NCBI GenBank assembly: GCA_038128845.1
Contig: JAYPKL010000004.1
Coordinates: 1 to 43,716 of the forward strand
Reading direction: 5' to 3'
Length of the DNA: 43,716 nucleotides
Source: Candidatus Woesearchaeota archaeon
GTDB lineage: Archaea > Nanobdellota > Nanobdellia > UBA10117 > ARS21
A model generated the notes under the pieces. The model was not told where the DNA came from, searched no databases, and saw only the letters and a program-made list of their open reading frames with translations. Made by a program: the position numbers and the translations under genes. Shown here piece after piece: positions 22,468 through 41,169 of the stretch. Each line of letters starts with the position of its first letter. Position 1 is the first letter of the stretch.

Positions 22468-23190
22468 CTAATTCTTTAATTCATCAAAGATTTCTCTTAA
22501 TTCTGAACCATTTACAATTGTTTTTGGATATTCGTCTTCAACAATTCTTGGACATGCTGTATTGACATAACAATCTACTTCTGAGAAATTAAGTAAGTCG
22601 TTATTTACAATAGTATCATGTGTTAAAATAATTCCGTCTTTTCCTAATTCTCTTGCTTCTTTTAACATTCTTTTTGCCATGTTTAAATAATATTGTCCTG
22701 GTTTGGTTGAAACTAAAAAACCATAACATTTTGCATGTTTTGCATTATTTTTTCTTATAGCTTGTTTAGAAAAATATCTTCTTTTTCTTTCTTCAGGTAA
22801 TAAATCAACTTTTTTTGTTAAAGGATTTGCTAAGTAAATATCTTTATCTGTAAGATAAGCAAGATTTAGTGGGTGAAATTCACCAGTTCCAAAAAATAAA
22901 AAAACTTCAACATCTTCTTCAACATCTAATGCCGCAGTAGAATCGCAACCCAAAACTTGTCCATCGTGAAAAGAGTATATTCCTTGTTTTGGTACTAAAT
23001 TTCTTGAAGGTTTTCCAACGAACACTTCCTTCCCTTTTTCGGTTAAATAATCTTTAATAAATTTAATATGTCGAATATGTTGCACAGTTGTTACAAGACC
23101 TATTTTAGTTTCTTTAACTTTTTCTATAATTTCGTTTAATAGCGGAGTAAAGTCTTCTTTAATGTATGCTTCAACAAATAATGTTCTCAT
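22468..23190 (-). CDS. dph2: Diphthamide synthesis protein Dph2, domains 2-3
   Basis: IGLVTTVQH, GQVLGCD, G.G.FHPL, STKPGQ, VNTACPRI; lacks domain 1. Confidence 0.92.
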   Translation of the reverse strand: MRTLFVEAYIKEDFTPLLNEIIEKVKETKIGLVTTVQHIRHIKFIKDYLTEKGKEVFVGKPSRNLVPKQGIYSFHDGQVLGCDSTAALDVEEDVEVFLFFGTGEFHPLNLAYLTDKDIYLANPLTKKVDLLPEERKRRYFSKQAIRKNNAKHAKCYGFLVSTKPGQYYLNMAKRMLKEARELGKDGIILTHDTIVNNDLLNFSEVDCYVNTACPRIVEDEYPKTIVNGSELREIFDELKN

Positions 23191-23249
23191 AATTCTTGGT
23201 CAATAATCTGACCTTTTAAATGTTTTCATTAAAAAAAATAAGATTCGAA

Positions 23250-23543
23250 TTAACGAATCTTAGCAAATATTTGAACTGCCATTAAAACAGCTCCAATTAG
23301 AGTTAATAAGAATGCAATTACAACAAAGATTATGTTTATGTATTGAATAGCTTGTTCAAAACCTGCTACTCCTTCTAATCCTGTACCTGTAACTGAACTA
23401 AGTAATAAAAATACTGCACCTGCAGCTATATAACTTAATTCTCTTTTAACTCCGTCAGCATAACCGCTGTATTTTAGTAAAGATAATCCTAAAAGTAATC
23501 CAATACCAATTTCAAGAGTACCTTCCATACCGAACAAAGCCAT
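23250..23543 (-). CDS. Three-TM membrane protein
   Basis: Three Gly/Ala-rich hydrophobic segments. Confidence 0.7.
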   Translation of the reverse strand: MALFGMEGTLEIGIGLLLGLSLLKYSGYADGVKRELSYIAAGAVFLLLSSVTGTGLEGVAGFEQAIQYINIIFVVIAFLLTLIGAVLMAVQIFAKIR

Positions 23544-23572
23544 ATAATATTATATCTTATTTTTTTATATAA

Positions 23573-24535
23573 TTATCTACCATATGATCCGTCTGGCAGA
23601 ATAGTTGGAAATCCGTACTTGGGATTTGTTAATAAATTATAAATTCCTGGGTCTTGATTTTTTACTTTTTCTTTTGTACAAAGTTTCCATTCATGATCTA
23701 TCTCGTTACATCTATTTTCCTGTGCGCCCAAAATCGAAGTCATTGCCCAATAGATATATTCAGTATTCATACAATCATATCTACAAGATTTATCATCATA
23801 AGTATACCATGCGCTTGCCGGATATGATTTTGGTACTGCACTTTGGAAAGAATGTCCATCTTCGATTATTGTACCTTCATTTTCAAAGTGACCTCCTCGG
23901 GCATTATCCATAAGATTTGCTAATTCAGATCCAGAAAATTCTCCAAATACACTCGGATATACTCCTTCATAACCTGTGTCAGTAATTAAATGAAAAATTT
24001 CTTCTAAACTTGCATCAAATCTTGATCCAGATATTATTACTTCCTCTCCGTGTAATTCTGCATATCGATACATCGGAGCATCAGAATCCCATGCATCAGA
24101 ATTTTCTGCTTCTCTATGATTTGCAAACATAATCATTCCTCCTTCTTCTTTTAGTAATTCGTCTAATACGCGGGTATTATCTGGAATGCCGTTTTCATCA
24201 TTATCTAAATATTGTGCCATTATATTCATGGCATGTAATAGTTTATCGTCCGTTACGCCTCTTGTTGCAAAAAAAGGTATACCAAATATTTCACCATATT
24301 TTTCAAAATATGGAATCATTTCCGGATGTTTATTTGGTACTGAAGTTATATCAAAACTTAAATCGTATTTTTTAGTTATTGGTTCTTGATTTGATGAGGC
24401 CATATTAATTTCAAATGAATCTTCATATATGGAATTATTTTCAATTATTATTTCTTCGGAAGTAGTTTTATCTAGATGAATACATCCGCTTAAATAAATT
24501 AATATTAAGAAAAAAAATAATAAAGTCTTATTCAT
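23573..24535 (-). CDS. Secreted lipoprotein-like protein with zincin-like motif
   Basis: Lipobox-like LSGC; QYLDNDENGIPDN loop; LEEIFHLI and downstream TEY.YW. Confidence 0.65.
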   Translation of the reverse strand: MNKTLLFFFLILIYLSGCIHLDKTTSEEIIIENNSIYEDSFEINMASSNQEPITKKYDLSFDITSVPNKHPEMIPYFEKYGEIFGIPFFATRGVTDDKLLHAMNIMAQYLDNDENGIPDNTRVLDELLKEEGGMIMFANHREAENSDAWDSDAPMYRYAELHGEEVIISGSRFDASLEEIFHLITDTGYEGVYPSVFGEFSGSELANLMDNARGGHFENEGTIIEDGHSFQSAVPKSYPASAWYTYDDKSCRYDCMNTEYIYWAMTSILGAQENRCNEIDHEWKLCTKEKVKNQDPGIYNLLTNPKYGFPTILPDGSYGR

Positions 24536-24558
24536 AAAGGATAATTAAATAATCGTTA

Positions 24559-24825
24559 TTAATCTTTTTTATTATATGCAAATGCATGGCCTACTGCAAC
24601 CATTAAATCATATTCTTTTGGTAAATTTGTTGGAACGTCACAAGCACCGAAATTTGAACCTGCCCAAACAGTAACTGTACATCCTGTTTTTTCTTCAATA
24701 ATTTTACTAAGTTCAACAGCATTCATTTTAATACCGTCGGGAAGCTGAAGAATAATATTTTTAGCATCGATTTTTTTAGCCTCATCGATAATTCTGTCAA
24801 TTTCAATGTCATATTTATTTAACAT
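24559..24825 (-). CDS. dph2: Diphthamide synthesis protein Dph2, domain 1
   Basis: YDIE..RI, ILQLPDGIK, NFGACDVP, VAVGH; ATG 24825 fits TATA spacing. Confidence 0.9.
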   Translation of the reverse strand: MLNKYDIEIDRIIDEAKKIDAKNIILQLPDGIKMNAVELSKIIEEKTGCTVTVWAGSNFGACDVPTNLPKEYDLMVAVGHAFAYNKKD

Positions 24826-24859
24826 AAAACTAACCATCTTAATGGCATTATAAATCTTA

Positions 24860-27687: not shown

Positions 27688-28323
27688 TTATTCAGAAGAA
27701 GCCATAGCAACTTCTTCAGATGGTTCAGATTGTTCTGTTGTAACTGCATCTTGAACATTAGATTCAATATCTTCTTTTGTTAAATTAGGATCATAAATTT
27801 TATTATCTTCTGCAATTGATTTACATGCAATTGGGAATTTTGAAGCGCCTTTACTGAATGCAGTTTTTGCATCTTGTATATTTTCTGTTGGAATGAATAA
27901 TTGCATAATTGCTTGACCTGCTTTAACTCTTGCAGATCTAGAAACAGATTTACCAAATGCTGCTCTCATACCCTGAGACATTCTATCTGCTCCTGCACCC
28001 ATAGCAATTGGATTTTCTCTAATAATTTGATGTGGAAAGACTCTAACTTTAAAACCAAAACCTGCTTTTCCTAAAACTTTATTCATATGTCTATTAATTG
28101 CGATTCTTCCTGCTTCAATAGCATTATGTCTTAAGTTAATATCTTTCTTTGCGTATAAAGTTACAGTAGTTGGGAAAAATTCATATCTTTTATTTCCTGA
28201 GTCAAAATGAATAATTTTATGATTAGGTGCAGCTCTAATGTATGATTTTTTTCTATATTTAGATGTACGTGTGAATGCTCTCTTTAATCTTCTATGACAC
28301 TTTGCTGGTCTTAACTTTGCCAT
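27688..28323 (-). CDS. rpl10e: 50S ribosomal protein uL16 (L10e)
   Basis: RHNAIEA.R, RVFPH.I.REN, GAGADRMSQGMR.AFGK, K.P; acidic tail. Confidence 0.96.
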   Translation of the reverse strand: MAKLRPAKCHRRLKRAFTRTSKYRKKSYIRAAPNHKIIHFDSGNKRYEFFPTTVTLYAKKDINLRHNAIEAGRIAINRHMNKVLGKAGFGFKVRVFPHQIIRENPIAMGAGADRMSQGMRAAFGKSVSRSARVKAGQAIMQLFIPTENIQDAKTAFSKGASKFPIACKSIAEDNKIYDPNLTKEDIESNVQDAVTTEQSEPSEEVAMASSE

Positions 28324-28347: not shown

Positions 28348-28914
28348 TTAAATATTTCCCTCTTCATTGTTTTCTTCGATATTCGCAACATTATATTCGG
28401 AATATAATTCGAAATTAGGATAAAATTTAAAGTTAATTATAGAAGAATTAATCAATATATACGATCTAATTAGCTCCTCCTCTCCTTCAAATATTACGTC
28501 GTCACTAGATAAATAGATTTTTGAATCAACTATTTTTAATGGAAATCCGGATACTTTTACTAAGTTTGTTTCATCATCAAATTCAAAAGTATAATCCATA
28601 TTTACACTGTATTCAAAAATTGTAAAATCTTTGTAAAATTTTGGATATTCATTCATTCTTTCTTCAAATTCTAAAACAAAATTAGTTTCAAAATCATTTC
28701 CGGAATAAAATCTAGAGTCATAAGCTGCATAATTTGCTGAATCTTCAACAAAAGTTTGGTAATTTTGTGATATTTCAGTTAATTTTACCAATTCTTTTTG
28801 AGACTTTCCTATCTCAACTGTAAAATTTTGTGGTTCATAAGTTGATATTAAAATTAAACTGAGTACTCCTACTAAACCGATTGAATATAATAATATGATA
28901 ATTCCTTTTTTCAT
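28348..28914 (-). CDS. Pilin-like protein (class III signal peptide)
   Basis: MKKG|IIILLYSIGLVGVLSLILI; last gene of the pilin cluster. Confidence 0.65.
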   Translation of the reverse strand: MKKGIIILLYSIGLVGVLSLILISTYEPQNFTVEIGKSQKELVKLTEISQNYQTFVEDSANYAAYDSRFYSGNDFETNFVLEFEERMNEYPKFYKDFTIFEYSVNMDYTFEFDDETNLVKVSGFPLKIVDSKIYLSSDDVIFEGEEELIRSYILINSSIINFKFYPNFELYSEYNVANIEENNEEGNI

Positions 28915-29387
28915 TATTTATATAACTCCATGTGCAAAAATTTAACACAATCTTCTTCACATACTTTTTTTGATATTGCCAAAGAGCAAGAAATAACTTT
29001 TTCTTTATTTGATAAATCTCCGTGATTTATTGTAGTATATGAATCATCTAACTCGCAGTTTTCTTCAAATGATTCGCAATCTTCACTTATACTGAGTTTG
29101 AAATTTAAATTTAAATTTAACAAATGTTGGTCAATTTTATTTAGATTAGTTAAATCATCATCAGATTCTCCTAAATGTAACGAAGTTTTTTTATCAAATA
29201 TCTTATCTGATTTTAATATATTATTGAGATTATTATAACATTCAAATCCTGAATTAACTGCTATAACATCGGCATTTGATCTAACTTCTCCTTGCTGAGA
29301 AAAATAAATGCTTGATACAAAAATAAACATAATTATCATAACTCCAAAATAAATTTCAATCATACTGGCAACAGAACCTTTACGCAT
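28914..29387 (-). CDS. Pilin-like protein (class III signal peptide), Cys-rich
   Basis: MRKG|SVASMIEIYFGVMIIMFIFV. Confidence 0.7.
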   Translation of the reverse strand: MRKGSVASMIEIYFGVMIIMFIFVSSIYFSQQGEVRSNADVIAVNSGFECYNNLNNILKSDKIFDKKTSLHLGESDDDLTNLNKIDQHLLNLNLNFKLSISEDCESFEENCELDDSYTTINHGDLSNKEKVISCSLAISKKVCEEDCVKFLHMELYK

Positions 29388-29796
29388 TGTAACAAACCTC
29401 TGCAATTAATTCTCTACTACCTCTCAAATATAGAACCATATCAGGAAAATCACATTCTAAAAGACCTTCTGAATAAACCAAGTTATAATTTAAATCAAAA
29501 AAACTTAAACTATATTTTTCTTCATCAAATCCGCTTAGACAATTATTATCTAGATTTTTAAAATCACTTTTATAACCAAAATCGGCTACAGGAAAATCTT
29601 GAATAGTTTTAACATCAGTATAACAATAACTAGTAATTCTTTTTCCTATAATTGTTAAATCCATTTCATCCAATTCATAATTTGCATCAACTTTCAAATT
29701 TACCAAATAACTCTCTACGGAGAAAATTCCAACCATCAAAATTATAACTGCAAAAATTACATAAATAATGGTTTGAAGTTGCATGAATCCTTTCAT
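29380..29796 (-). CDS. Pilin-like protein (class III signal peptide)
   Basis: MKG|FMQLQTIIYVIFAVIILMV. Confidence 0.7.
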   Translation of the reverse strand: MKGFMQLQTIIYVIFAVIILMVGIFSVESYLVNLKVDANYELDEMDLTIIGKRITSYCYTDVKTIQDFPVADFGYKSDFKNLDNNCLSGFDEEKYSLSFFDLNYNLVYSEGLLECDFPDMVLYLRGSRELIAEVCYNA

Positions 29797-32162
29797 AATA
29801 ATTTATTAATCTCCGTTATTAATATACCATTATGTTCTTTTTTACTTATTTCTATTACAAGAGGATTTTCAATATAATAATTATTATCTGAGTCTATCAT
29901 ACCCGCAGATTTAGATATATATGGGAAAAATGATTTAGAATCAACAGGATTAGTCAAAAATGCCGTGGTTAAACCAATTGCAGCCGGACCTGCAAATGCT
30001 GCTAAAACTCCTCCTGAAAAGTAAGCGCTAAATGAGCCCGAAATTTGTGGATCTGCCCAAGATCCTAAATATAGAATTCCCCATCCGAAAGTACAACCTG
30101 GTCCGAATGATGCTTTAATTGCAGTAACTGATCCGCAAGCTACAAAAGGTATTGTTGCAACCATTTCTCTTGGATTAATAATAGTATCTTGTAATACTTT
30201 CGGAGTTGCATCTTTAGATAATAAATTATTATGTGAATCAACACAATTGTTGTCTGAATTAATTATATTTGGATATTCTTTTGATTTTAAAATTGGTGAA
30301 CTGGATGGCATTGCAAATATGCCTTCTGCTATGTCTCCAAAAATTTTTATTTCTCCTATAAAACTATTGTCAAAATCAGGATAATTCAGTACCGATTCAG
30401 ATTCGCAATTTGGTTTTGATACATAGTAAGTTTTATTTTCCGATTTACAAGAAATTGTTGAAAATGAATTTTCAACAGCTTCTGTAGCTTTTTGAGACTT
30501 ATTAATAAAATAAACTATTGGAAGATATGTTAAACCGTACTCTAAAGCATAACTTATCCAAGACATACCTTTAACTGATAATATACAAACCGGTGCAAAT
30601 ATCGCTAACCCGCTACAAGCCGGTTCTGCAACCTCTGTTGTTGCTTTAACCGCCAATGATCTAACTGCGGACTTTCCGATTCGTTCTGATGTTTGTTTTG
30701 CTGCACTGTTATATAATTTATTTAAACCTGTTACTTTACCCATAAATTTTATTCTTTTTTTAGCTCGTTCTGCAGATTCAATTGCTGCTGTTTTAACAAA
30801 ACTAGCACCTTTTTTGAATGGTGACGTTATATAATTTAAACTAGATCCGGTACGTTTCAAAAATCCTTTTTTTGCAATTTGTTTTTCGGCAAGTAAAGGT
30901 GCTTTTTCTAATGCCTTGCTTAGTTTATACGCTCTATATTTTTTAACTCCAGGTATTTTGGATTTCAAATCATTTCTACCCGATCTTTCAATTGCATCCA
31001 GTGTAGAATCATCAAGACTTGCATATAACTTGTCTAATTCATCAAAAAAATTTGGACTTATATCTGGATTAATTTTATCAAAAGCCTGTCTATAATTATC
31101 ATGTGCATCTGCTAATGCTTTTTCAACAACATCGTCTCCTAATGATTTTGCTTCATTTAATTCTGCAATAGCGCTTCCAGCTTTATTATTGGCATTTGAT
31201 ATTTGAAAATCTCTTTCTTGAATAATATCGTTTCGAATTTTAGTACGTTCATCTGATAAAAATTCTTCTGAGGGAGTTCTAGTGATTTGTGTATTTCCTG
31301 TTTTACTCTTTTTATTTTTATATCCTCCTGGCGGATTCTTACTTGGATTTATTCTTTCATCAAAATAAAAATCAAATCGATCTTTATATTTTCCAGTTAT
31401 TTCTCCTGTATCTATATCAATCTTTCCAATAAGTTCTTCATCAGATAATTCGGCTAAGGCTTTAGATTCATCACTCCATTGTCTTGTTGCAGAACTTATT
31501 TCTTCTTGTTTAGTTAGCTCTATATCTGTTGCTTGCTGAATATATTGTTCATCAACATATTCTCCGTATAATTTTGCAGAATTTAAGTCGTCCTCTAATT
31601 TTTGCTCAAGAATTGCTTTATTTACTTCATCTAAATTATAACCTGCTTCTTCAAATTGTTTTCTTAGAATCTTTTCTCTATATTGATCTTCTCTCCAATT
31701 TTGGAGTTCTCTAGTCGTAAGATCTTGACCTGCATCAGATGCAATTCTTGCTAATTTTGCAGTACTAGTTCGATCTTTATTGTATTGATATAAACTATAA
31801 TAAAGCAATCCTTCCTCGATAGGAATATTATCCCATGCTGCGTTTAGAATTAAATTTGACATATAATCTTGAGGATATTTACTCAGAGTATATTCACATT
31901 CTACTGGGTTAAAAAGAACCGTACCATAACCAGGGTTGCCTAAAAAATCTGTAGGAATTTCATGATATACGGATATAGGTACTGATGACGAGTCAACGAA
32001 ATCTGTTGTAATTGCAAGAGTTTTTGCAGCAATAGTTGGATCTCCTAAAACCGAAGTTTCTACAGCATCATAAAAAACATTAACTGAAGCAATAGTAGTT
32101 AGTGAAGCAATTAAAACTATTCCAATTTGAAGAATTAAATCTCCGGATATACCTTTCTTCAT
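29793..32162 (-). CDS. Giant pilin-like protein (~789 aa) with helical region and hydrophobic hairpins
   Basis: MKKG|ISGDLILQIGIVLIASL; ATGA overlaps with both neighbours. Confidence 0.7.
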   Translation of the reverse strand: MKKGISGDLILQIGIVLIASLTTIASVNVFYDAVETSVLGDPTIAAKTLAITTDFVDSSSVPISVYHEIPTDFLGNPGYGTVLFNPVECEYTLSKYPQDYMSNLILNAAWDNIPIEEGLLYYSLYQYNKDRTSTAKLARIASDAGQDLTTRELQNWREDQYREKILRKQFEEAGYNLDEVNKAILEQKLEDDLNSAKLYGEYVDEQYIQQATDIELTKQEEISSATRQWSDESKALAELSDEELIGKIDIDTGEITGKYKDRFDFYFDERINPSKNPPGGYKNKKSKTGNTQITRTPSEEFLSDERTKIRNDIIQERDFQISNANNKAGSAIAELNEAKSLGDDVVEKALADAHDNYRQAFDKINPDISPNFFDELDKLYASLDDSTLDAIERSGRNDLKSKIPGVKKYRAYKLSKALEKAPLLAEKQIAKKGFLKRTGSSLNYITSPFKKGASFVKTAAIESAERAKKRIKFMGKVTGLNKLYNSAAKQTSERIGKSAVRSLAVKATTEVAEPACSGLAIFAPVCILSVKGMSWISYALEYGLTYLPIVYFINKSQKATEAVENSFSTISCKSENKTYYVSKPNCESESVLNYPDFDNSFIGEIKIFGDIAEGIFAMPSSSPILKSKEYPNIINSDNNCVDSHNNLLSKDATPKVLQDTIINPREMVATIPFVACGSVTAIKASFGPGCTFGWGILYLGSWADPQISGSFSAYFSGGVLAAFAGPAAIGLTTAFLTNPVDSKSFFPYISKSAGMIDSDNNYYIENPLVIEISKKEHNGILITEINKLL

Positions 32163-32644
32163 CCAAATATTGCCTCTCCTATTGAACATCCGCTTGCAAT
32201 CCCGTATTGATAAGGCATTTTAGATAGAATAATTGTTCCTCCGTCATTACACACACATGCCCTTGTATCAATTTTTCTTGTAAAATCTATATTTAGAGGA
32301 AATTCATTATTTATAGAATTGAAAAAATCATTATCACTTATTCGTACTGATTTCTTCATTGAAACTGAAGTTACTGGATCAGATTTACCTTCTTCAATTA
32401 AAGATAATTTACCAGAAATATGCTCCATTCTGAATCCTTCTTTTATTAAAAAATTAAAATCTGCACACTTATCTTTGCTCAATGAATCCGAAAATGCTGC
32501 AAGGTCTCTTATTGTAAAAATTGATTCATCATCGTTTTCAATTAAACCGCCAAATAAATTTGATAATAAAAATCCGCCTATCAATACTACCATTCCTGCT
32601 ATAACCAACTCAATAATAGAATATGCAGTAATACTTCCTTTCAT
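32159..32644 (-). CDS. Pilin-like protein (class III signal peptide)
   Basis: MKG|SITAYSIIELVIAGMVVLIGG; 4 Cys. Confidence 0.72.
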   Translation of the reverse strand: MKGSITAYSIIELVIAGMVVLIGGFLLSNLFGGLIENDDESIFTIRDLAAFSDSLSKDKCADFNFLIKEGFRMEHISGKLSLIEEGKSDPVTSVSMKKSVRISDNDFFNSINNEFPLNIDFTRKIDTRACVCNDGGTIILSKMPYQYGIASGCSIGEAIFG

Positions 32645-32851: not shown

Positions 32852-34234
32852 TTATAAAATACTGGAACTTTCGCAAATATTTGTTAATGCCTCAAATACG
32901 CCTGAATCTAATGTTTGTCTATCTACTGAACTTATTGTTGAAAAAATAGGGCATGATCCTCCAGTTGAATCTCTTGATAGTCTTGATCCCGCATTATTTA
33001 ATTCGTCAGATATAGAAATATGTTTTTTATTTCCGCAAGAATACATAGGTATTAATCCAGAAGAAACTGAAGATAAACCGTCACAATAATTTATTTGAAA
33101 TGCAGAACTAGGGTTTATTGGTTCATCATTAAATAAAACTAATTTATTTTCCATATCTGGATCATTTAATCTAAATATATCAGAAAAAGACAAATAATCA
33201 TTATACATTTTAACATCAGAAACGCGTTTTATATCTTCAGAATATATTCTTTCATCAAAATTATTTTCCAGTTGTAAAGTTAATTCAAATCGATCATAAT
33301 TATCACAATTTTGATTAATTAGTGAATTACAATAATTTGTAAAAATAATATCATTTTTTTCTTCTTTGACTTTAATTAATTTTTCATTTGAATTATGAAT
33401 TGATTGAAAATTTGATTTTATCTCGGAAACATCACAATCTGAAATTGAATTATTTATTATAGAATTCAATAAGCCATAATTATTATTATTAGTTAAATCA
33501 TTATACATTTTTTCATATAATTCTGAATCAAAAATAACACTACTTTCGGTTACTTGTAATAAATTTTGATTTTCAAACTCTGCGTCTATATTTGAACAAC
33601 TCTTCAATTTATCTATATTTAAATTTCTTGAAGATTGAATTATTGAATTATATATTGAACTTATTTGTGCACTTACAAATGAATCTCTTTGAAGAGCTTT
33701 ACAATTTGAATTTGAATTTTCAGAATCACAGTTAAAATAATTTTCTAATCTGATTCGAATAATTTCATTAGGATCTTTATTTTCAACAGAACCTATCGAT
33801 ACTGTAAAACAAGCCCAATTATATCCATTAATAAATCCTTCTGAATTCATTTTCCAACATTTTCTTGATAGATCTAAAATTTCATCAACAATACAATTTT
33901 TTTGTTGATCATAGGGATTTATATTTATAACATTTTGATCACAATCTAATTTATTTGGATCAATAATTATTTTTTGTGTTGGACATGATTTTAAAAATTC
34001 AAAGGGATTTATTTGTTGAGGTAATAAGTTTATAATATCATCTTGTATACCTTGGTCTTTTGTTTCTAAAGAAACGGCATTTATTTTTGCAGTACATAAT
34101 TTTTCATTAACTTCACTAACTTCAACAGAGTCCGTAAATTGATTATAAACACCTATAGAAACTATTAAACCTAATATTGACAACAAAATTCCTACAATAA
34201 AATAAGTAGATTGTCCTTTTATATTAAATACCAT
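32852..34234 (-). CDS. Large Cys-rich pilin-like protein
   Basis: IKG|QSTYFIVGILLSILGLIV; many Cys including NCIVDEILDLSRKCW. Confidence 0.72.
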   Translation of the reverse strand: MVFNIKGQSTYFIVGILLSILGLIVSIGVYNQFTDSVEVSEVNEKLCTAKINAVSLETKDQGIQDDIINLLPQQINPFEFLKSCPTQKIIIDPNKLDCDQNVININPYDQQKNCIVDEILDLSRKCWKMNSEGFINGYNWACFTVSIGSVENKDPNEIIRIRLENYFNCDSENSNSNCKALQRDSFVSAQISSIYNSIIQSSRNLNIDKLKSCSNIDAEFENQNLLQVTESSVIFDSELYEKMYNDLTNNNNYGLLNSIINNSISDCDVSEIKSNFQSIHNSNEKLIKVKEEKNDIIFTNYCNSLINQNCDNYDRFELTLQLENNFDERIYSEDIKRVSDVKMYNDYLSFSDIFRLNDPDMENKLVLFNDEPINPSSAFQINYCDGLSSVSSGLIPMYSCGNKKHISISDELNNAGSRLSRDSTGGSCPIFSTISSVDRQTLDSGVFEALTNICESSSIL

Positions 34235-34788
34235 ATTAATGTCATTATTAAACCTCCTAAAATAAATAATATTAAATAAAAAATTCTAGAAAGTCCAAGA
34301 TAGTTGCTATAATTTTTAATAATAGAATATGAAAATACTATAATTATTAAATAAAATAGAATGAATCCTATATAAATTAAAAAATTAAAGCCGCTGCTGA
34401 GTAATAAAAATGAAAACAAAAATAGATTAAAATAAAATATATATGGATAAATTAATGAATAAAACATTTTAATATCTGAATTTGAACCGAATAATTTTGA
34501 AAAAATTACCAAAATAAACGATAAAAAATTTATAAAAATAAAATAAAAAATAAATACTGAAATTAAAAATAAAAAATAAGAACTAAAAATTGTTAAAGAA
34601 TTTATATTTGTATTGATCAAGGAACCTATTTCTTGTGAATAATTAGAATTAATTATTCTTGATGAATTTAATGAATAAATTATTAATAAAAACGAAAATA
34701 AAAATAAATTTTGTATTAGGTATGTAAAATTATTATTATAATAATTTGATAGTCCTAAAGAATATTTTATATTTCCAATAAAGCTCAT
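34219..34788 (-). CDS. Multi-pass membrane protein, Yip1-like
   Basis: About 5 TM segments; FSKLFGSNSD resembles the Yip1 KLFGG loop. Confidence 0.55.
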   Translation of the reverse strand: MSFIGNIKYSLGLSNYYNNNFTYLIQNLFLFSFLLIIYSLNSSRIINSNYSQEIGSLINTNINSLTIFSSYFLFLISVFIFYFIFINFLSFILVIFSKLFGSNSDIKMFYSLIYPYIFYFNLFLFSFLLLSSGFNFLIYIGFILFYLIIIVFSYSIIKNYSNYLGLSRIFYLILFILGGLIMTLIWYLI

Positions 34789-34814
34789 ATTAATAATTAA
34801 ATTATTTATATATA

Positions 34815-34973
34815 TTAATTTCCTAAATTATCGGTACTTGATTTTAATAAATCAGTTGCAATATTTGTAACAGATCCGTCTGATCCTATTTTTGAAATCA
34901 TAAAAACAATTAATAAAACTGCAACAGTTATTCCAATAATGAATAAAATTATTTGATTTATTCCTAATTCCAT
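34815..34973 (-). CDS. 52-aa mini-pilin without leader peptide (not in ORF track)
   Basis: MELGINQIILFIIGITVAVLLIVFMISKIGSDGSVTNIATDLLKSSTDNLGN*; TAATG-coupled to upstream gene. Confidence 0.72.
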   Translation of the reverse strand: MELGINQIILFIIGITVAVLLIVFMISKIGSDGSVTNIATDLLKSSTDNLGN

Positions 34974-35116
34974 TATATTTTAACTGCGGAGCCTAATTCT
35001 TTAGCTATATTCATCATATCTCCTCTGGTGTTTGCAATAAATATTACCATCAAAACTAAAAATGTTATTGCAATTAAAAAAGCTATTACTTGCCAATTAA
35101 GTTGTCCTTTTAACAT
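34973..35116 (-). CDS. 47-aa mini-pilin (not in ORF track)
   Basis: MLKG|QLNWQVIAFLIAITFLVLMVIFIANTRGDMMNIAKELGSAVKI*. Confidence 0.8.
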   Translation of the reverse strand: MLKGQLNWQVIAFLIAITFLVLMVIFIANTRGDMMNIAKELGSAVKI

Positions 35117-36123
35117 TGTCCCCTCCTCTCATAATAAATATAATTTTCTGATAGTTTGGCATTACCAAATTCAAATTCTCCTAAGATTGCACCTGCGGCA
35201 TATAATGGTTGATTTCCTTTTAAAACCGAGATCGTTTTTACTCCTGCTTCCAAAAGATTTATATCTGTTGATTCAACAAATCCTAAAATTATTTGATCTC
35301 CGGAATTATAATTTATATTTGGATCAAATAAAATATTATCATAAGGTCCCAATTCGTTTACTGATGAATAAAGATTTATCATTTCAGATAAACTATTTGA
35401 ATTTAATTCTAGATCAACTATATTAACTAGATAAAAATCTTTATCTTGAATACCTACTGCTTTTTCGTAACTTATTTTTATTAATTCGCCTTCATTTTTT
35501 GGAGTTATCTTAATTCCTATTTCTTCCGGATCATATAAATTTCCAATATCTTGAAATTTCAATGTGTATTGGTTTACGGGTGTATCTGAAATTTTAACAT
35601 CTAACTCATTTGTGTTTGGTACATAAATTTCACCAACAGGTTTATCTAACTTATATGATCTGAATCCATTTGATAGACAAATTCTATTACATTCGCCGCT
35701 GAATTTTGCATTTCCTTTAAGATATGTATTCCAGCAAGAATTTGATCTGTCAATTAATGCATAACTTAAGCATAAATTTCCAAAATTTTGATCATTTTTG
35801 GCCAACTCATAATTTCCTTGATAATATTCAATTAGTCCTTTACACATATCGAACATTCGATTAGTATTTGTAATGTCCGGAGGTCTCAATGTTTCAGAAA
35901 CTACTTTACAATTGCTATTTCCAATATCTAGAGCTTGTTCAACAATATCATCTCCGGTATACATATTTTGAAATGCATTTCTTAATGTACATGCACTATT
36001 ACCTTGATTGTTTAATATTCCGTAAGATATTTCAGAATAAACTAATATTGAAACGAATCCCGCTATAAGTATTAATAAAATACTTACAATATAAAACTGA
36101 ACTGCACCTCTATTTGAGAGCAT
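35110..36123 (-). CDS. Large Cys-rich pilin-like protein
   Basis: MLSNRG|AVQFYIVSILLILIAGFV; LCLSYALIDRSNSCW motif paralogous to 32852..34234. Confidence 0.72.
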   Translation of the reverse strand: MLSNRGAVQFYIVSILLILIAGFVSILVYSEISYGILNNQGNSACTLRNAFQNMYTGDDIVEQALDIGNSNCKVVSETLRPPDITNTNRMFDMCKGLIEYYQGNYELAKNDQNFGNLCLSYALIDRSNSCWNTYLKGNAKFSGECNRICLSNGFRSYKLDKPVGEIYVPNTNELDVKISDTPVNQYTLKFQDIGNLYDPEEIGIKITPKNEGELIKISYEKAVGIQDKDFYLVNIVDLELNSNSLSEMINLYSSVNELGPYDNILFDPNINYNSGDQIILGFVESTDINLLEAGVKTISVLKGNQPLYAAGAILGEFEFGNAKLSENYIYYERRGQC

Positions 36124-36211
36124 TATTAACAATAACAAGCATTATTCCTACTGCAACAAGGGATAATATTAGCATTATTATATAAGAATAAGTTGAATTT
36201 TGACCTCTCAT
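36110..36211 (-). CDS. 33-aa micro-pilin (not in ORF track)
   Basis: MRG|QNSTYSYIIMLILSLVAVGIMLVIVNNALK*; TATA-like TTTAAATA about 20 nt upstream. Confidence 0.7.
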   Translation of the reverse strand: MRGQNSTYSYIIMLILSLVAVGIMLVIVNNALK

Positions 36212-36255
36212 AGTTATTAAATCAAAAATTTTATTTAAATTAATCTATATACTTT

Positions 36256-36501
36256 TTAAGAACACTCGCCATAGACTTCCAAACAAGCATCTTCATTAAA
36301 TAAATCTAAATTTCCAACGGATTTAGCATTATTACAAGAAAGTAAACAAGATGCATAATTTGTATTTGTTGAATCTTGAAGTTCTGAAACTTCTTCAGAT
36401 AATCCGGAAAATCGACCAGAAAAGAATAATAACATTCCTACTAAAACAGATAATGCGATAATAAGTGCAATTATTGTATTGATACTAATTTGTCCTTTCA
36501 T
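36256..36501 (-). CDS. Pilin-like protein
   Basis: MKG|QISINTIIALIIALSVLVGMLLFF; C...C..AK and terminal Cys pair. Confidence 0.82.
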   Translation of the reverse strand: MKGQISINTIIALIIALSVLVGMLLFFSGRFSGLSEEVSELQDSTNTNYASCLLSCNNAKSVGNLDLFNEDACLEVYGECS

Positions 36502-36502
36502 A

Positions 36503-36871
36503 TTATATACCGCAATCAGTTTCTCCGTCAAAATAAACTAATGAACCTGAATCGGATCTTCCTGATCCGCTACATGATACGGATATTGGACTTTCATAAC
36601 AATTTAACTCTTCACCGTCAACAATAAATTTTTTTGAACAATATGATGAAGTTGGAAATGAATCAATTCCGGAATTTGATACTGAAGCTTTAGCAGTATT
36701 ACAAAGATTATTACAATTTGATTTGTATGTGTCAATTTTATCAGGGCTAGATTCGGACACTGATGAAAATAAGTTACCTAGTCCTCCGGTAGTAAATCCA
36801 ACTATTATAATTAAAGCTGAAAGAGCAATAATTAAACCAACAATAGTGTTTGTACTAATTTGTCCTTTCAT
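36503..36871 (-). CDS. Pilin-like protein (candidate major pilin)
   Basis: MKG|QISTNTIVGLIIALSALIIIVGFTTGG; C...C..AK, 6 Cys; first after the platform gene. Confidence 0.82.
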   Translation of the reverse strand: MKGQISTNTIVGLIIALSALIIIVGFTTGGLGNLFSSVSESSPDKIDTYKSNCNNLCNTAKASVSNSGIDSFPTSSYCSKKFIVDGEELNCYESPISVSCSGSGRSDSGSLVYFDGETDCGI

Positions 36872-36901: not shown

Positions 36902-38902
36902 TTATGCCAAAACTCCGGTGACTACTCCCGCCATTTGGGAAAATATAAAAGTTCCAATAAATGCAAGACCGCAATATAATAATGTGGCAATAATTATATT
37001 TTTTGAAAACATATTTTCAAAATCTAATTTACTTGATCCGTTTATAATTCCAGATACTAAATTTGTCAATAAATATATTGCTTGAATTATATAAATTCCA
37101 ATCATTAATTGTAAAATAAATGGTGGTACGGCGACATCTACTTGAAATATATTTGTAATTCCAGTTCCAATACCTTGACTTTCTATATCTCCGGCGTTAA
37201 AACCTTCTAATTGATTACTCAAATTAAGTAGAACTTTGGTTACTAATACGGAAAGGCTTACTACAAGTGCAGACATTACTGGTGCTAAAAAAGATATTTG
37301 CATTTTCATACTCGATAGAGAGTCTGATAAAAGATCAAACATTCTTTCTTTAAGTTGATGCATTTTTTGAAGATATAAAGAAAGTGTTGTCATAGAATCT
37401 GCAGTAATTTGAGAACCTTTTTTTGAAGATTCTATTAAGATTTTCATAACAGATTCTATTAAAGGTGAAGGATATTTAGTTAACGCACCAATTTCATTAT
37501 TAAAAATTGAATCTTCTAAATTCATTCCTCTTTTTCTTATGTTATCATCAATAATTGTGAAAAAATTATTAACTTCAGAACCTTTTGTATTCTCAACCAT
37601 TTTTGAAAAAGCTGCCTCAGTAGGAATATTTTGACTAATTAGATTACCTAATTGAAAAATTGCAGAAGAAAATTCATCTTCAATTTTTTCTAAAGATTTT
37701 TTTGAATTTATTAAGTTCTTTGTTTTATAATTATAATAGACAAAAAAAGAAATACCTATTGAAAATATTATTAATAGAGATATATAAAAAACACTATTTT
37801 CAAATTTATAAAATCCCCAATTATCAGAACCTGCAAACCATAATAAAATTAACGTTGCAGGTATTGCAATAACTGAAAATAATAAACCTGAAACTAATTT
37901 CAGTCTTCCAGTATGCATATTTCTTTTATCTAAAATAGATGTTGAAACGCCTCCTGGACGAGTATTCAATATTTTTTTAGAAATTAAAAATACAATGACT
38001 GGTAAAAATAAATTATAGGTAAAAATTAAAGGAATTGGTTTGATTGTATCTGCTAAGAATGCAGACACCATTGGCATCATTATCAGCATTAAAAGAGGCA
38101 TTACTATACCTAACATATTAACTGTTTGTATGGGAGATTGTAAATTATGTGCATAATGAGTAAGATTATCTTGAACTCCGGTTGTAATAACTTCAGTGGA
38201 TTTTTCTAAAATTTTTTTTGCTTTATTTGAATCTGATTCTTGTAAACTTGATTGAATTAGATGTATAGATTCAACAAAAGCAGGTTCTGAATCTTTCCAA
38301 GTTTCAATATAATAATTTAAAGAATCATCAATTGTTTGATATTTTCCCGTTTCAACATCCCATAATATTTTAATAAAATCAATAGAAAGCGGAGCAGGTA
38401 TTTGATTTGCAACAAATAAAATTGCTCTTTCTAAATTTGAATCTCGCTTCATATATATTACAATATATAAAACTGCAATTAGTAATTGGTCTGAAGCCTT
38501 AGCTCTCCAACTTTCAAAAATTAATTTAGGCATATTTGAAAGATAATAAATTAAAAATAATGATGTAGCAATACTTGCAAAACCAAAAAAATATTGTCCT
38601 AAAAAAATAAGCGGAATTGCTAATATGAAAAAAGGAATGGCAGAAAGAATTGCCAAAGACATAACTCCATTCGGATCAATGTTTAAATGAGCTAGTTGAA
38701 TGTATTTTTGAAGATTTGGTAAATCTTTTTCTGAAGGTTTTAATTTTAATATTTTGGAACTAAAATTTACAAATTTTTCATATCTACCCGATAAAACTTT
38801 TTTATTTTCTTGTAAAAATGTTTGATACTCTTTTGAATATGAAATATTTTTTTTTGAAGGATTATTAACTTTATTTAATCTTTCTTCGAATTCATTAGCC
38901 AT
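36902..38902 (-). CDS. Type IV pilus/T2SS membrane platform protein (TadC/FlaJ-like, duplicated domain)
   Basis: Two cytoplasmic domains (YMK...NLERAI; E.EFSSA.FQLGN...PTE.A) alternating with TM bundles; follows the ATPase. Confidence 0.85.
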   Translation of the reverse strand: MANEFEERLNKVNNPSKKNISYSKEYQTFLQENKKVLSGRYEKFVNFSSKILKLKPSEKDLPNLQKYIQLAHLNIDPNGVMSLAILSAIPFFILAIPLIFLGQYFFGFASIATSLFLIYYLSNMPKLIFESWRAKASDQLLIAVLYIVIYMKRDSNLERAILFVANQIPAPLSIDFIKILWDVETGKYQTIDDSLNYYIETWKDSEPAFVESIHLIQSSLQESDSNKAKKILEKSTEVITTGVQDNLTHYAHNLQSPIQTVNMLGIVMPLLMLIMMPMVSAFLADTIKPIPLIFTYNLFLPVIVFLISKKILNTRPGGVSTSILDKRNMHTGRLKLVSGLLFSVIAIPATLILLWFAGSDNWGFYKFENSVFYISLLIIFSIGISFFVYYNYKTKNLINSKKSLEKIEDEFSSAIFQLGNLISQNIPTEAAFSKMVENTKGSEVNNFFTIIDDNIRKRGMNLEDSIFNNEIGALTKYPSPLIESVMKILIESSKKGSQITADSMTTLSLYLQKMHQLKERMFDLLSDSLSSMKMQISFLAPVMSALVVSLSVLVTKVLLNLSNQLEGFNAGDIESQGIGTGITNIFQVDVAVPPFILQLMIGIYIIQAIYLLTNLVSGIINGSSKLDFENMFSKNIIIATLLYCGLAFIGTFIFSQMAGVVTGVLA

Positions 38903-41136
38903 TTATTTAACCAATCCTCCCATTCGGAATAAATTTTATCTGGATCTGTTTTTTGATATCGATCATATACTTCTTTACTTATTTTATGAAACATATCATT
39001 ACAAAGAATAGTAAATTCAGCTTCCAATAAAGATTCATTATTCTCTGAAATTTCTACGATTTTACTTTTTATTTTAGATCTCAACAAAATATTATTATAA
39101 ACTGCATCCCAATCGCCTGCCCATTCTGGAATCTTTGATGCAATATTTTTTAGAACTTCAGATTCTCCTTGAATTAATGCGTCCGTTGGTTCTAATTCAT
39201 CAGTTTCAGGATTATAAATCATTAAATCTAAAAAGCCATTTTCTTTTAATGGATCGTCAGTCCATTCTTTTTTAACTTCAGCAATTTGAACAATACGCTT
39301 TTTTCTGTCAAGACCCGATGCGGTTTTTACTGGATTTGCAACAACTATTATATCTGTAGCTTTAAATGAAGTTTTTGGAACATTTAAATCATTCACAACT
39401 CTATCAAAAATAGAATAAGGAGAATCTCCGTGAATTGTTCCCATAACAACATTTGCTAATGCACCAACTCTCATTGCCTCATATAATGCTGTGGCTTCTT
39501 TGCTCCTAACTTCTCCAACTATTAATGCTGAATCTCCCAGTCTTAATGCTGCTCGAATACCATCTTCTGCAGTTAGTTCTGCAGATCCTTGTGATAAAAC
39601 CGATTGAACTTTCATGGATTGTATATCATAATTTAATCTCTGATAACTTCTTATGGGTAATTCTAATGTATCTTCTATTGTAAGAATTCTTGTTGATCTC
39701 ATTAATTCAACTAATGATGAACTTAGAAAAGAAGTTTTACCTGAAGATCTTGTACCTGCAATAAGAATTGTTCTTGCTCCGTCAATTAAAAAACTAAGTA
39801 AACCTGCTGCAAGCGGATTTATCATTTTATTTTTTATAAATAGAGGATAAGTCCAAGGTTTTTCTCTATGTCTTCTAAATGAAAATGCCATACCGTCTGG
39901 GCTAATTGGTTGCTGAATGGCTGCAACTCTTGCAGTAGAATTTGGTAAAATTAAATTAGTATCTAAAACTGGATTTGCTTCGTCCAAAGGTCTACCGGAT
40001 ATTAACCTTAGTTTTGTGGCAATTGCTTCAGTTTCTTTCTGAGTTAGAGTAATATTAGTTCTACATTCTCCGTATTTTTGATGAACTATAGAAATCTCAT
40101 TAATATTAGATGGTGCATTTATAGAAATATCTTGAATATTATCATCCATTAAAATAACTTCAATAAGTCCGAAACCCAAAGTATATCTTACTAAAATCTC
40201 TGCAAGTTGATCAACTTCATCTTTAGTTAATTTAATTCCTTTAGATATACTTAAATCGTTAATTAAATCTTTTTCTACATTTTTGAATAATTCTCTGGTT
40301 TTTTCAGGATCAATAAATTCTGATTTTTGAGGTTTGTGTTCAGAAACTACTTGCTTTGCTTCTCCTAGAAGTAAATATTTATCTTCAGATAAACTCATTT
40401 CGGGAGGAACTATATGGTAAATTGGCCGAATACTTTCCTTTAAATCTAGAATTGATACTTTTGTTTTATCATTTAATGAATAAGATTCTAATATAACTGA
40501 ATCTGAGGGAATTTTGGTAATTAATTTTGCATATAAAAAATTTGGTTTAATGACTGGGCTAAAAATTCTTGAATAAATTTTCCTGTCATTGGGTTTATGT
40601 TCAGAAAAATAAGGCTGTGCCAATCTGATTAAATCTGTTTTTTCTAAAGAATTTTTTATATAATTTAATGTTTGTAAAAATGCTTGTCTTGATTTCGGAT
40701 TTTGTCGATTTGAAGTTTGTCCGAGTTTTAATTCTTCATCAATTTTTGATAAAAGTCTTAAATATACGCCTATTGGTTCTTCTCTTAAACCAAAATTTAC
40801 TATTGACTTTAAAAATTCAATACGATCTGGATACGGTTCTTCATCAGATATATCTCTTACAGAAGATTCAGAAAAAATTTTTTTATTCTCCAAATCCATT
40901 ATTATTGAAGCAATCTCAATAAGTATATTTGTTTGATCATATGGATAAATTACATCTTCTTGCTGCAAAAATTGTATTTGGTTTACTCTGCCTGATTTTG
41001 TAAGTTTATCTATTGTATCTGCCATAACTGAAGAATTATTTTCAATAGTTGGTGACTTTACGCTTTTTGAATAGTCTACTTCAAGAATTCTTTGTCCGGG
41101 TTTTTCTATAATTCTATATGGGTTATTTGAATCCAT
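38875..41136 (-). CDS. Type II/IV secretion system ATPase (TadA/FlaI/VirB11 family)
   Basis: Walker A GTRSSGKTS, TIEDTLEL Asp box, LRLGDSALIVGEVR, GTIHG; likely start MDSNN at 41136. Confidence 0.93.
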   Translation of the reverse strand: MDSNNPYRIIEKPGQRILEVDYSKSVKSPTIENNSSVMADTIDKLTKSGRVNQIQFLQQEDVIYPYDQTNILIEIASIIMDLENKKIFSESSVRDISDEEPYPDRIEFLKSIVNFGLREEPIGVYLRLLSKIDEELKLGQTSNRQNPKSRQAFLQTLNYIKNSLEKTDLIRLAQPYFSEHKPNDRKIYSRIFSPVIKPNFLYAKLITKIPSDSVILESYSLNDKTKVSILDLKESIRPIYHIVPPEMSLSEDKYLLLGEAKQVVSEHKPQKSEFIDPEKTRELFKNVEKDLINDLSISKGIKLTKDEVDQLAEILVRYTLGFGLIEVILMDDNIQDISINAPSNINEISIVHQKYGECRTNITLTQKETEAIATKLRLISGRPLDEANPVLDTNLILPNSTARVAAIQQPISPDGMAFSFRRHREKPWTYPLFIKNKMINPLAAGLLSFLIDGARTILIAGTRSSGKTSFLSSSLVELMRSTRILTIEDTLELPIRSYQRLNYDIQSMKVQSVLSQGSAELTAEDGIRAALRLGDSALIVGEVRSKEATALYEAMRVGALANVVMGTIHGDSPYSIFDRVVNDLNVPKTSFKATDIIVVANPVKTASGLDRKKRIVQIAEVKKEWTDDPLKENGFLDLMIYNPETDELEPTDALIQGESEVLKNIASKIPEWAGDWDAVYNNILLRSKIKSKIVEISENNESLLEAEFTILCNDMFHKISKEVYDRYQKTDPDKIYSEWEDWLNKWLMNSKKD

Positions 41137-41169
41137 ATTATTAAATAGAATAGATAGTTTATATATCAT

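Follow-up and report, generated by a model that had tools for sequence, protein, structure and literature searches.

A candidate giant modular minor pilin with a hypervariable insert in a type IV filament operon of a DPANN-type archaeon

What is a protein of 789 amino acids (aa) that starts like a pilin doing in a type IV filament (T4F) operon, and what does the large module behind that start carry? The question is raised by a gene at positions 29793 to 32189, reverse strand, of a 43,716-nucleotide (nt) stretch of DNA from a Candidatus Woesearchaeota archaeon (GenBank assembly GCA_038128845.1, contig JAYPKL010000004.1); the whole stretch is called the window and the gene and its product the target. 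A preliminary description of this DNA had taken the target for a giant pilin with a payload resembling colicin-type pore formers and the translocators of type III secretion systems (T3SS). One part of that reading, a pilin-like protein with a large inserted module, stood up to analysis, whereas the likeness to pore formers and translocators did not. The target is a real gene, with 23 homologues at E≤1e-3 and conserved synteny. With moderate confidence, we take it to be a giant modular minor pilin of a T4F system in a DPANN-type archaeon, serving contact with hosts or surfaces, in which an insert of about 660 residues seems to divide a small pilin in two.

The open reading frame (ORF) encodes 798 aa, or 789 aa if translation starts at the second Met (MKKGIS...) at position 32162. 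The second start is likelier, because its ATG and the TGA of the upstream gene share the letters ATGA, AGGAGAGG is located some 10 nt upstream of it, and the homologues begin with MKKG or NKKG; residue numbers below count from this Met. Start codon context, homologue starts, and a genome-wide [KR]G pattern all indicate that residues 1 to 4 (32151 to 32162; this and all other features of the target are on the reverse strand) form a class III-type leader, MKKG. It is followed by a hydrophobic N-terminal helix, the equivalent of alpha1-N of pilins (residues 5 to 37; 32052 to 32150; helix 7-37 in the AlphaFold2 [AF2] model), with a Kyte-Doolittle (KD) 19-mer maximum of 2.25 and a simplified insertion energy of about 0 kcal/mol, as in the true transmembrane (TM) helices of the platform protein encoded upstream. 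Leader and helix are conserved in the homologues, in agreement with the pilin leader and pilin-like start that had been noticed before. A genome-wide scan for a short basic [KR]G leader plus a strongly hydrophobic helix returned 19 ORFs, of which 9 belong to the target operon, 8 to another T4F locus, located on contig C1 of the same genome (G000), and 2 to neither. Genes for a secretion ATPase and the platform protein lie upstream of the target, and an A24 prepilin peptidase (PF01478; 33 bits against a cut-off of 26.5) is encoded at G000:C1:99805-100128.

What follows the pilin-like start is a succession of very different parts. A conserved N module (residues 38 to 135; 31758 to 32051), predicted with a predicted local distance difference test score (pLDDT) of 80 to 86, consists of a helix (42-58) and three strands (64-68, 81-85, and 90-94) and contains C89. 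The hypervariable charged middle (residues 136 to 414; 30921 to 31757) is helical in the AF2 model, where pLDDT reaches 93 and the long helices span 150-172, 177-238, and 299-363; the last two form a predicted hairpin about 9 nm in length, whose distal loop is of low confidence; K plus R and D plus E each account for 17% of residues 136 to 520. Then comes a polybasic linker rich in Lys, Ala, Gly, and Ser (residues 415 to 512; 30627 to 30920), with a net charge of +16 and pLDDT of 25 to 47, and after it an apparently Cys-stapled alpha/beta C domain (residues 513 to 789; 29796 to 30626), which has no recognised fold in an AF2 model of residues 500 to 789. The chain ends in a conserved beta-hairpin (residues 762 to 788; 29799 to 29879), which is proposed to return to the pilin sheet; its strands (762-765, 769-777, and 780-787) appear in both AF2 models. 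The charged helices, the Lys/Ala-rich stretch, and the beta-rich end listed in the preliminary description are all there. By these models, the pilin part would comprise the four-residue leader, the hydrophobic alpha1 helix, a few strands, and the terminal beta-hairpin, and the insert would comprise an acidic hypervariable helical hairpin of ~9 nm, a charge-conserved polybasic linker, and a disulfide-stapled alpha/beta domain.

Conservation follows the same division. Mean pairwise identity among 20 full-length homologues is 0.52 for the N module with its leader and helix (residues 1 to 135), 0.11 for the middle (136 to 414), 0.16 for the linker (415 to 512), 0.35 for the C domain (513 to 789), and 0.56, the highest of all parts, for the tail (738 to 789). 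Both chain ends are the most conserved parts, and the middle, 55 to 343 aa long in different homologues, is hypervariable, which is the outcome that a comparison of orthologues had been expected to give for an insert. The linker retains a net charge of +12 to +21 over 73 to 121 residues in 31 of 32 homologues, its sequence not being conserved. Among the cysteines, C586, C640, C676, and C690 are invariant, and two pairs come and go together in the 29 rows compared: C516 and C526 are both present in 18, both absent in 10, and alone in 1, and C89 and C572 occur together in 20 and are jointly missing from 9, neither ever standing alone, a pattern for which the tree requires two joint changes.

Is the target really a pilin split by an insert? 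The coupling of C89 in the N module with C572 in the C domain, an insert-less homologue, co-folding of the two ends, and the conservation pattern agree on insertion into a pilin, none of them being decisive. The insert-less homologue is a 102-aa class III ORF in genome G005 (same family, another genus; L018:3744-4052), located directly before a gene like that for the 138-aa pilin (pil138) which follows the target. In small local searches, it matches the N module of the family member P0042 (39.8 bits, independent E value [iE] 2e-12), and there is a weak alignment (iE 0.89) between its 21 C-terminal aa and those of P0035. In G023, from another family of the order, the same slot is occupied by a divergent member of 763 aa (L017:10130-12421), which scores 61 bits against a profile of the distant clade and has N- and C-terminal matches to P0042, again in small local searches. 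Since the slot before the pil138-like gene holds 763 aa in one genome and 102 aa in the other, the size of the payload varies about ninefold within the order; across genomes, its occupant ranges from the 102-aa pilin, seen in a single genome, to giants of about 500 to 920 aa elsewhere. Co-folding of residues 1 to 135 with residues 500 to 789 gave a score of 0.43, compared to 0.00 for the best of three controls, with runs agreeing in at least 70% of contacts and a partner pLDDT of at least 57. Of 80 solved complexes, 58 attained the mark applied here, as did 2 of 110 mismatches, but only 7 of the 80 had a score of ≤0.60, and the co-fold lends weak support. Together with the variable insert, these results support the earlier idea of a module grafted into a pilin.

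Several results weigh against a split pilin. No pilin Pfam family was found for the protein or for the nine 60-aa N termini of the operon (0/9 at E≤10), and hhalign detected no relation between the target family and the pil138 family (probability, 0.1%). The predicted secondary structure (helix 7-58 and strands between 64 and 94 and between 762 and 787) fits the canonical pilin fold, but the full-length model is poor (predicted template modeling score [pTM], 0.44) and the co-fold of the two ends is weak. The link to the 102-aa and 763-aa ORFs runs through distant members in small local searches, and hhalign of the main-family alignment against these two ORFs is weak (11% and 7%). A search of 5.8 billion proteins returned no stand-alone small homologue, its 4 matches being judged contig-end fragments. 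Sequence membership in the GspK/T2SSK family was not found, there being no Pfam family for the target at E≤0.01 and, in 24 family members, nothing beyond chance matches at E≤1. What the analysis establishes is the gene with its family and operon, the layout of domains, the pattern of conservation, and the coupling of cysteines; cleavage, tip position, and adhesion are inferred.

The operon in which the target lies fits a filament system. The target is the second of five genes, encoding proteins of 161 aa, the target, and 138, 157, and 188 aa, that overlap by 31 (4 with the start at 32162), 4, 26, and 1 nt; between this block and the genes upstream there is a gap of 207 nt. The first gene encodes a class III-like small pilin of 161 aa (32159 to 32644, reverse strand), a homologue of which precedes the target in loci L003/L011 and L012. 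The last three encode class III-like small pilins of 138, 157, and 188 aa (28348 to 29796, reverse strand), translationally coupled to the target through the last three of these overlaps, and their homologues follow the target in all loci with flanking sequence (L001, L002/L010, L003/L011, L004, L012, L013, and L014). The complete order of five is kept in L003/L011 and L012, and the target followed by the 138- and 157-aa pilins, sometimes also by the 188-aa pilin, in L001, L002/L010, L004, L013, and L014. Upstream on the reverse strand (32852 to 36871) are two small candidate major pilins of 122 and 81 aa, which are paralogues (E 1e-12), two class III-like proteins of 337 and 460 aa, and a polytopic membrane protein of 189 aa. 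The polytopic protein (34219 to 34788, reverse strand) has no Cys and no Pfam family, and a 211-aa protein is its positional equivalent at L003:7160-7795. Farther upstream, still on the same strand (36902 to 41169), are the polytopic T4F platform protein (666 aa) and the secretion ATPase (764 aa). The ATPase matches PF00437 (E 5.4e-17) and the FlaI model (E 7.1e-42, below the cut-off of that model), and the platform protein has a weak T2SSF match (E 0.0058, below cut-off). All nine pilin-like ORFs of the operon have an even number of cysteines, and in seven of them Cys makes up 2.4 to 4.9% of residues, versus a genome median of 0.48%, which fits disulfide-bonded surface (extracytoplasmic) proteins. 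An L10e gene (27688 to 28323, reverse strand) lies 24 nt after the last pilin gene and keeps this position in L002, L003, and L018, so that it may be co-transcribed with the pilin block.

How would such a protein work? A prepilin peptidase would cut behind MKKG, and the target and the four co-transcribed small pilins would come together as polymerisation begins, in a complex that primes the filament or makes up its tip, and the target would cap the filament. Assembly at that stage would leave the target at the pilus tip, where it probably sits, touching other cells. The helical finger of ~9 nm, with its hypervariable distal loop, and the cationic linker would point away from the filament, where they would recognise a partner cell or surface and keep hold of it, and the conserved Cys-stapled C domain would act as a base connecting the insert with the pilin module.

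Does anything resembling a pore former lie within the insert? Three Gly/Ala-rich hydrophobic segments had been singled out, two of them bracketed by Cys pairs, and they are indeed present, in the C domain and where they had been placed: segment 1, ACSGLAIFAPVC (residues 515 to 526; 30585 to 30620), between C516 and C526; segment 2, ACGSVTAIKASFGPGC-TFGWGILYLG (residues 675 to 701; 30060 to 30140), with the invariant pair C676/C690 and helices 664-682 and 686-702; and segment 3, FSGGVLAAFAGPAAIGLTTAFL (residues 715 to 736; 29955 to 30020), with the short helices 718-724 and 727-736. The full-length AF2 model is mediocre (pLDDT 63.2) and shows helix 7-58, strands between 64 and 94, the hairpin 177-238/299-363, and the terminal strands between 762 and 787. 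Residues 500 to 789 folded alone from an alignment of 34 rows gave a compact and confident model (pLDDT 81.7, pTM 0.75), in which segment 1 is a turn between helices 501-517 and 523-564, and segments 2 and 3 fall in short helices (664-682, 686-702, 705-715, 718-724, and 727-736). This compactness suggests that the hydrophobic segments are buried in a globular fold, an outcome that had been named beforehand as refuting the pore-former reading; the Gly/Ala-rich helices would then belong to the fold of the alpha/beta domain, and C516/C526 and C676/C690 look like staples across helix-turn-helix elements.

Comparison of the confident C-domain model with pore-forming folds, which the preliminary description had put forward as a check, brought no support for them. 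Foldseek against the PDB gave no match (best E 0.98), none of 48,161 chains reached Z≥8 with VIA (best Z 6.1), no viral match was found in BFVD (best E 0.38), and the ESM Atlas score of the C domain, 0.77, is noise. The pore formers that did surface, PaxB (Z 5.0, VIA with the C-domain model) and ClyA (E 1.8, whole model), are both within noise. Fold searches with the whole model, VIA included, retrieved only generic coiled coils, over residues 164 to 377, with no pilin among the matches and the coiled coil dominating. A sequence profile search of the PDB likewise gave only coiled-coil noise, the best match being apolipoprotein A-IV (E 0.026) in the coiled coil. Searches of Pfam (E≤0.01) and NCBIfam found 0 families for the target, and across 24 family members no Pfam family at E≤1 was common to more than 4, the matches being scattered and due to chance. 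The N module scored 0.87 to 0.88 against small DPANN hypothetical proteins in the ESM Atlas, which is a lead only. The absence of a fold match for the C domain, itself judged on a predicted model, does not prove a new fold. Two other candidates were rejected: a catalytic site built on the invariant C586, H644, and S588 and an SKSAG motif, for which there is no enzyme family match and whose cysteines are better explained as disulfides, and a glycine zipper in segment 3, no Gly-zipper Pfam family being found at E≤1 in any member.

Could the insert nevertheless act on a membrane? In this version of the earlier reading, the stapled bundle would open on contact at the pilus tip, the polybasic amphipathic linker would bind an anionic target membrane, and the Gly/Ala segments would insert as a pore- or fusion-peptide-like wedge that breaches the host membrane or fuses with it, an explanation we regard as unlikely. 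What speaks for membrane activity is composition: segments 1 and 3 stay Gly/Ala-rich at identities of 0.17 and 0.21, which place them among the least conserved parts, and a cationic linker precedes them. The predicted hydrophobic helices of the C domain are only 7 to 19 residues long. KD maxima of 1.69, 1.47, and 1.70 for segments 1, 2, and 3 are moderate compared to 2.25 for the N-terminal helix, and among 32 homologues a value of at least 1.6 is reached in only 5, 3, and 11, respectively. In all 32 homologues, each internal segment has a simplified insertion energy, a position-independent sum, of at least +2.3 kcal/mol, versus −4.0 to +0.7 for the N-terminal helix and −2.3 to +1.0 for the TM helices of the platform protein; the scale values are reportedly those of Hessa et al. 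2005. Segment 3 varies from 33 to 86 aa and is missing in P0035 and P0038 and not hydrophobic in P0042, the three most distant homologues. By length, KD, insertion energy, and the absence of segment 3, a bilayer-spanning hydrophobic hairpin is not conserved in the family. The preceding linker is strongly cationic in nearly all homologues and has amphipathic helices (hydrophobic moment muH, 0.45 to 0.52), but four conserved Cys pairs would lock the bundle, and neither in sequence nor in fold does the target resemble a pore former above noise. The genome has 457 kb, and cytoplasmic bridges between DPANN archaea and their hosts, whose molecules are unknown, are reported in passages of PMC11329633. 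A latched membrane-engaging tip device, in which the finger finds the host, the linker lands on its anionic membrane, and the unstapled bundle exposes fusion-peptide-like Gly/Ala segments by which the membrane is opened or fused, would give the cytoplasmic contact of DPANN archaea with hosts its first molecular candidate, and is doubtful to the same degree. Nothing in the analysis supports pore formation by the target, and membrane activity of any kind has a low probability; instead of a pore-former- or translocator-like payload, the analysis points to short, weakly hydrophobic, apparently Cys-stapled helices with no family, PDB-sequence, or fold match.

A second explanation, quite improbable, is that the target is an assembly or anchoring component retained in the membrane, held by the N-terminal helix plus the internal segments and scaffolding the pilus base outside the filament. 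With 789 aa it is bulky for a filament subunit, the KD maxima of segments 1 and 3 come up to the customary TM threshold, and models in Makarova et al. 2016 (PMC4858521) place archaeal minor pilins near the pilus base. Most homologues, however, are below TM-grade hydrophobicity, and a crossing at segment 1 would put C572 to C690 in the cytoplasm, but C572 co-varies perfectly with the external C89. C516 and C526, ten residues apart in segment 1 and co-occurring, point to a stapled turn rather than a TM helix, and, with segment 1 as the first re-crossing, the basic linker would go against the positive-inside rule. Ordinary TM anchors in the producer membrane, which had been named as another outcome that would undo the pore-former reading, are thus disfavored as well, by sub-TM hydrophobicity in most homologues, the Cys staples, and the C89-C572 coupling.

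Pilus-dependent natural transformation occurs in methanogens, and the polybasic linker, charged in 31 of 32 homologues at 16% identity, might be taken to bind extracellular DNA or another polyanion at the tip, as in competence pili, and so to feed a cell unable to make nucleotides. Bacteria have modular or minor pilins that bind DNA, ComZ being an example (PMC8179133). This explanation is improbable, since the 90%-complete genome has no ComEC-type channel (PF03772), the target has no known DNA-binding domain, and the charge would equally suit anionic S-layers, glycans, or lipids.

The giant modular pilin, our preferred reading, belongs to a known kind. Modular type IV pilins are described in parts of PMC8179133 as widespread and architecturally diverse, with a bulky module presented at the tip, and the bacterial examples documented there include GspK, in which an alpha-domain is inserted into the pilin sheet, CofB, ComZ, and PilB. 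The target resembles the GspK/XcpX minor pseudopilin of bacterial type II secretion and the PilX-like minor pilins of type IVa pili (T4aP) in being the largest subunit among co-encoded minor pilins. Unlike GspK, it has no Pfam match (T2SSK included), no fold match found, and an archaeal class III leader, and its insert, made up of a coiled-coil finger, a polybasic linker, and a Cys-stapled alpha/beta domain, exceeds that of GspK about threefold in size. PilB and PilC of Streptococcus sanguinis, CofB, TcpB, and ComZ similarly use a pilin module to carry a bulky functional module and present it at the tip; in these bacterial proteins, the modules are mostly appended and have known folds (vWA, lectin, beta-solenoid), whereas that of the target has an unmatched fold and is apparently inserted, so that the pilin part would hold both ends of the chain. 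The large gene among four or five small minor pilin genes also recalls the PilY1/PilC tip adhesin with the four core T4aP minor pilins. Analogous PilY1-like tip adhesins were proposed for archaeal type IV pilus loci in Makarova et al. 2016 (PMC4858521). PilY1 is a non-pilin with a beta-propeller, unlike the target, which has its own class III N terminus and no propeller. Closer to home, a 906-aa class III cadherin/Big_9 protein of the same genome (L015:6936-9656) has the same type of signal and, like the target, is a giant pilin-like protein encoded among T4F genes; it differs in its adhesion repeats, which are appended C-terminally, in its archaellin-type locus with two platform genes, and in its sequence, which is unrelated to the target. 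The likeness to colicin-type domains, ClyA/PaxB, and T3SS translocators is a general impression produced by long amphipathic plus Gly/Ala-rich hydrophobic helices; in contrast to theirs, the helices of the target are too short and too weakly hydrophobic, the bundle is disulfide-stapled, and no match rises above noise. What is new in the target is that it is archaeal and DPANN-specific, with an apparently inserted module of unmatched fold in a slot of varying size.

How widespread is the family? None of the 23 homologues from the word-indexed search is named or has a Pfam domain, and a profile search of 1.84 billion cluster representatives gave 26 matches at E≤1e-3; P0040 was rejected as a member after inspection of its sequence, being a false repeat match. 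Among 39 genomes of the order, the target profile matches 8, namely G000 and 7 of the 10 others of its own family, and 0 of 28 in other families, whereas full-length orthologues of the platform protein occur in 37 of the 39. Only one copy of the family was found in G000. Public contigs with the target gene are labelled as Woesearchaeota or Nanoarchaeota metagenome-assembled genomes (MAGs). Two short contigs, L001 (2052 bases) and L004 (1582 bases), carry the end of the target gene and the next pilin genes and are filed in bacterial MAGs (Ectothiorhodospiraceae and Marinoscillum); they are probably mis-binned archaeal contigs. By title and abstract, no paper on the target family was found in the DPANN and archaeal pilus literature; S10 Fig of PMC13705601, on DPANN loci, may show the operon type.

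The window is contig C4 of G000, a genome of 457,113 bases in 10 contigs with an estimated completeness of 90%. It is AT-rich (GC 0.23 to 0.32) and carries the archaeal markers PCNA, MC1, prefoldin, TFS, L10e, Dph2, and SepF; the organism is an ultra-small DPANN-type archaeon, probably a symbiont. Near-identical DNA is contained in estuary and salt-marsh metagenomes. No RNA run was listed among 20 public runs, which has no bearing on expression. Contigs of four DNA runs were compared with the window; in X5 and X9, long contigs span 28348 to 30798 and 31605 to 32644, and the listed pieces within about 30.85 to 31.63 kb are short (129 to 442 nt); these short pieces may reflect strain heterogeneity in the helical middle, which contigs cannot establish. 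In contigs of three salt-marsh runs, an in-frame insertion of 3 nt (ACT) follows position 30839, in the polybasic linker, and the same contigs have numerous single-base differences around it.

Other loci deserve mention. The second T4F locus (L015; G000:C1:42000-58500) encodes PF01917 archaellin-type small subunits, an ATPase, and two T2SSF platform proteins, and besides the 906-aa cadherin/Big_9 protein also a 631-aa class III protein without a Pfam match. Dph2 (PF01866) is split in the window (22468 to 24837, reverse strand) into an N piece (24559 to 24837; profile positions 1 to 57) and a C piece (22468 to 23190; profile positions 64 to 289), and two unrelated ORFs (320 and 97 aa) lie between the pieces, an arrangement shared by a Nanoarchaeota MAG (L003:17210-19588). 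A 539-aa protein (4963 to 6582, reverse strand) has both a PIN domain and a T2SSE-like P-loop ATPase domain and is unrelated to the pilus operon.

What does a giant pilin mean for such an organism? Recent surveys, as far as parts of PMC13705601 go, depict type IV filaments as rare or poorly resolved in DPANN archaea, and the molecular basis of their host recognition and attachment is described as still unknown in passages of PMC11329633. The 457-kb genome spends about 12.8 kb on the target operon and keeps a second T4F locus besides. The conserved platform gene and the variable slot offer a natural series of a pilin becoming the carrier of a fast-evolving surface module, and the C domain, confidently predicted without a match to a solved fold, is a good target for structural work. 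If the variable finger is the determinant of host recognition, it could mark host range in uncultivated DPANN lineages.

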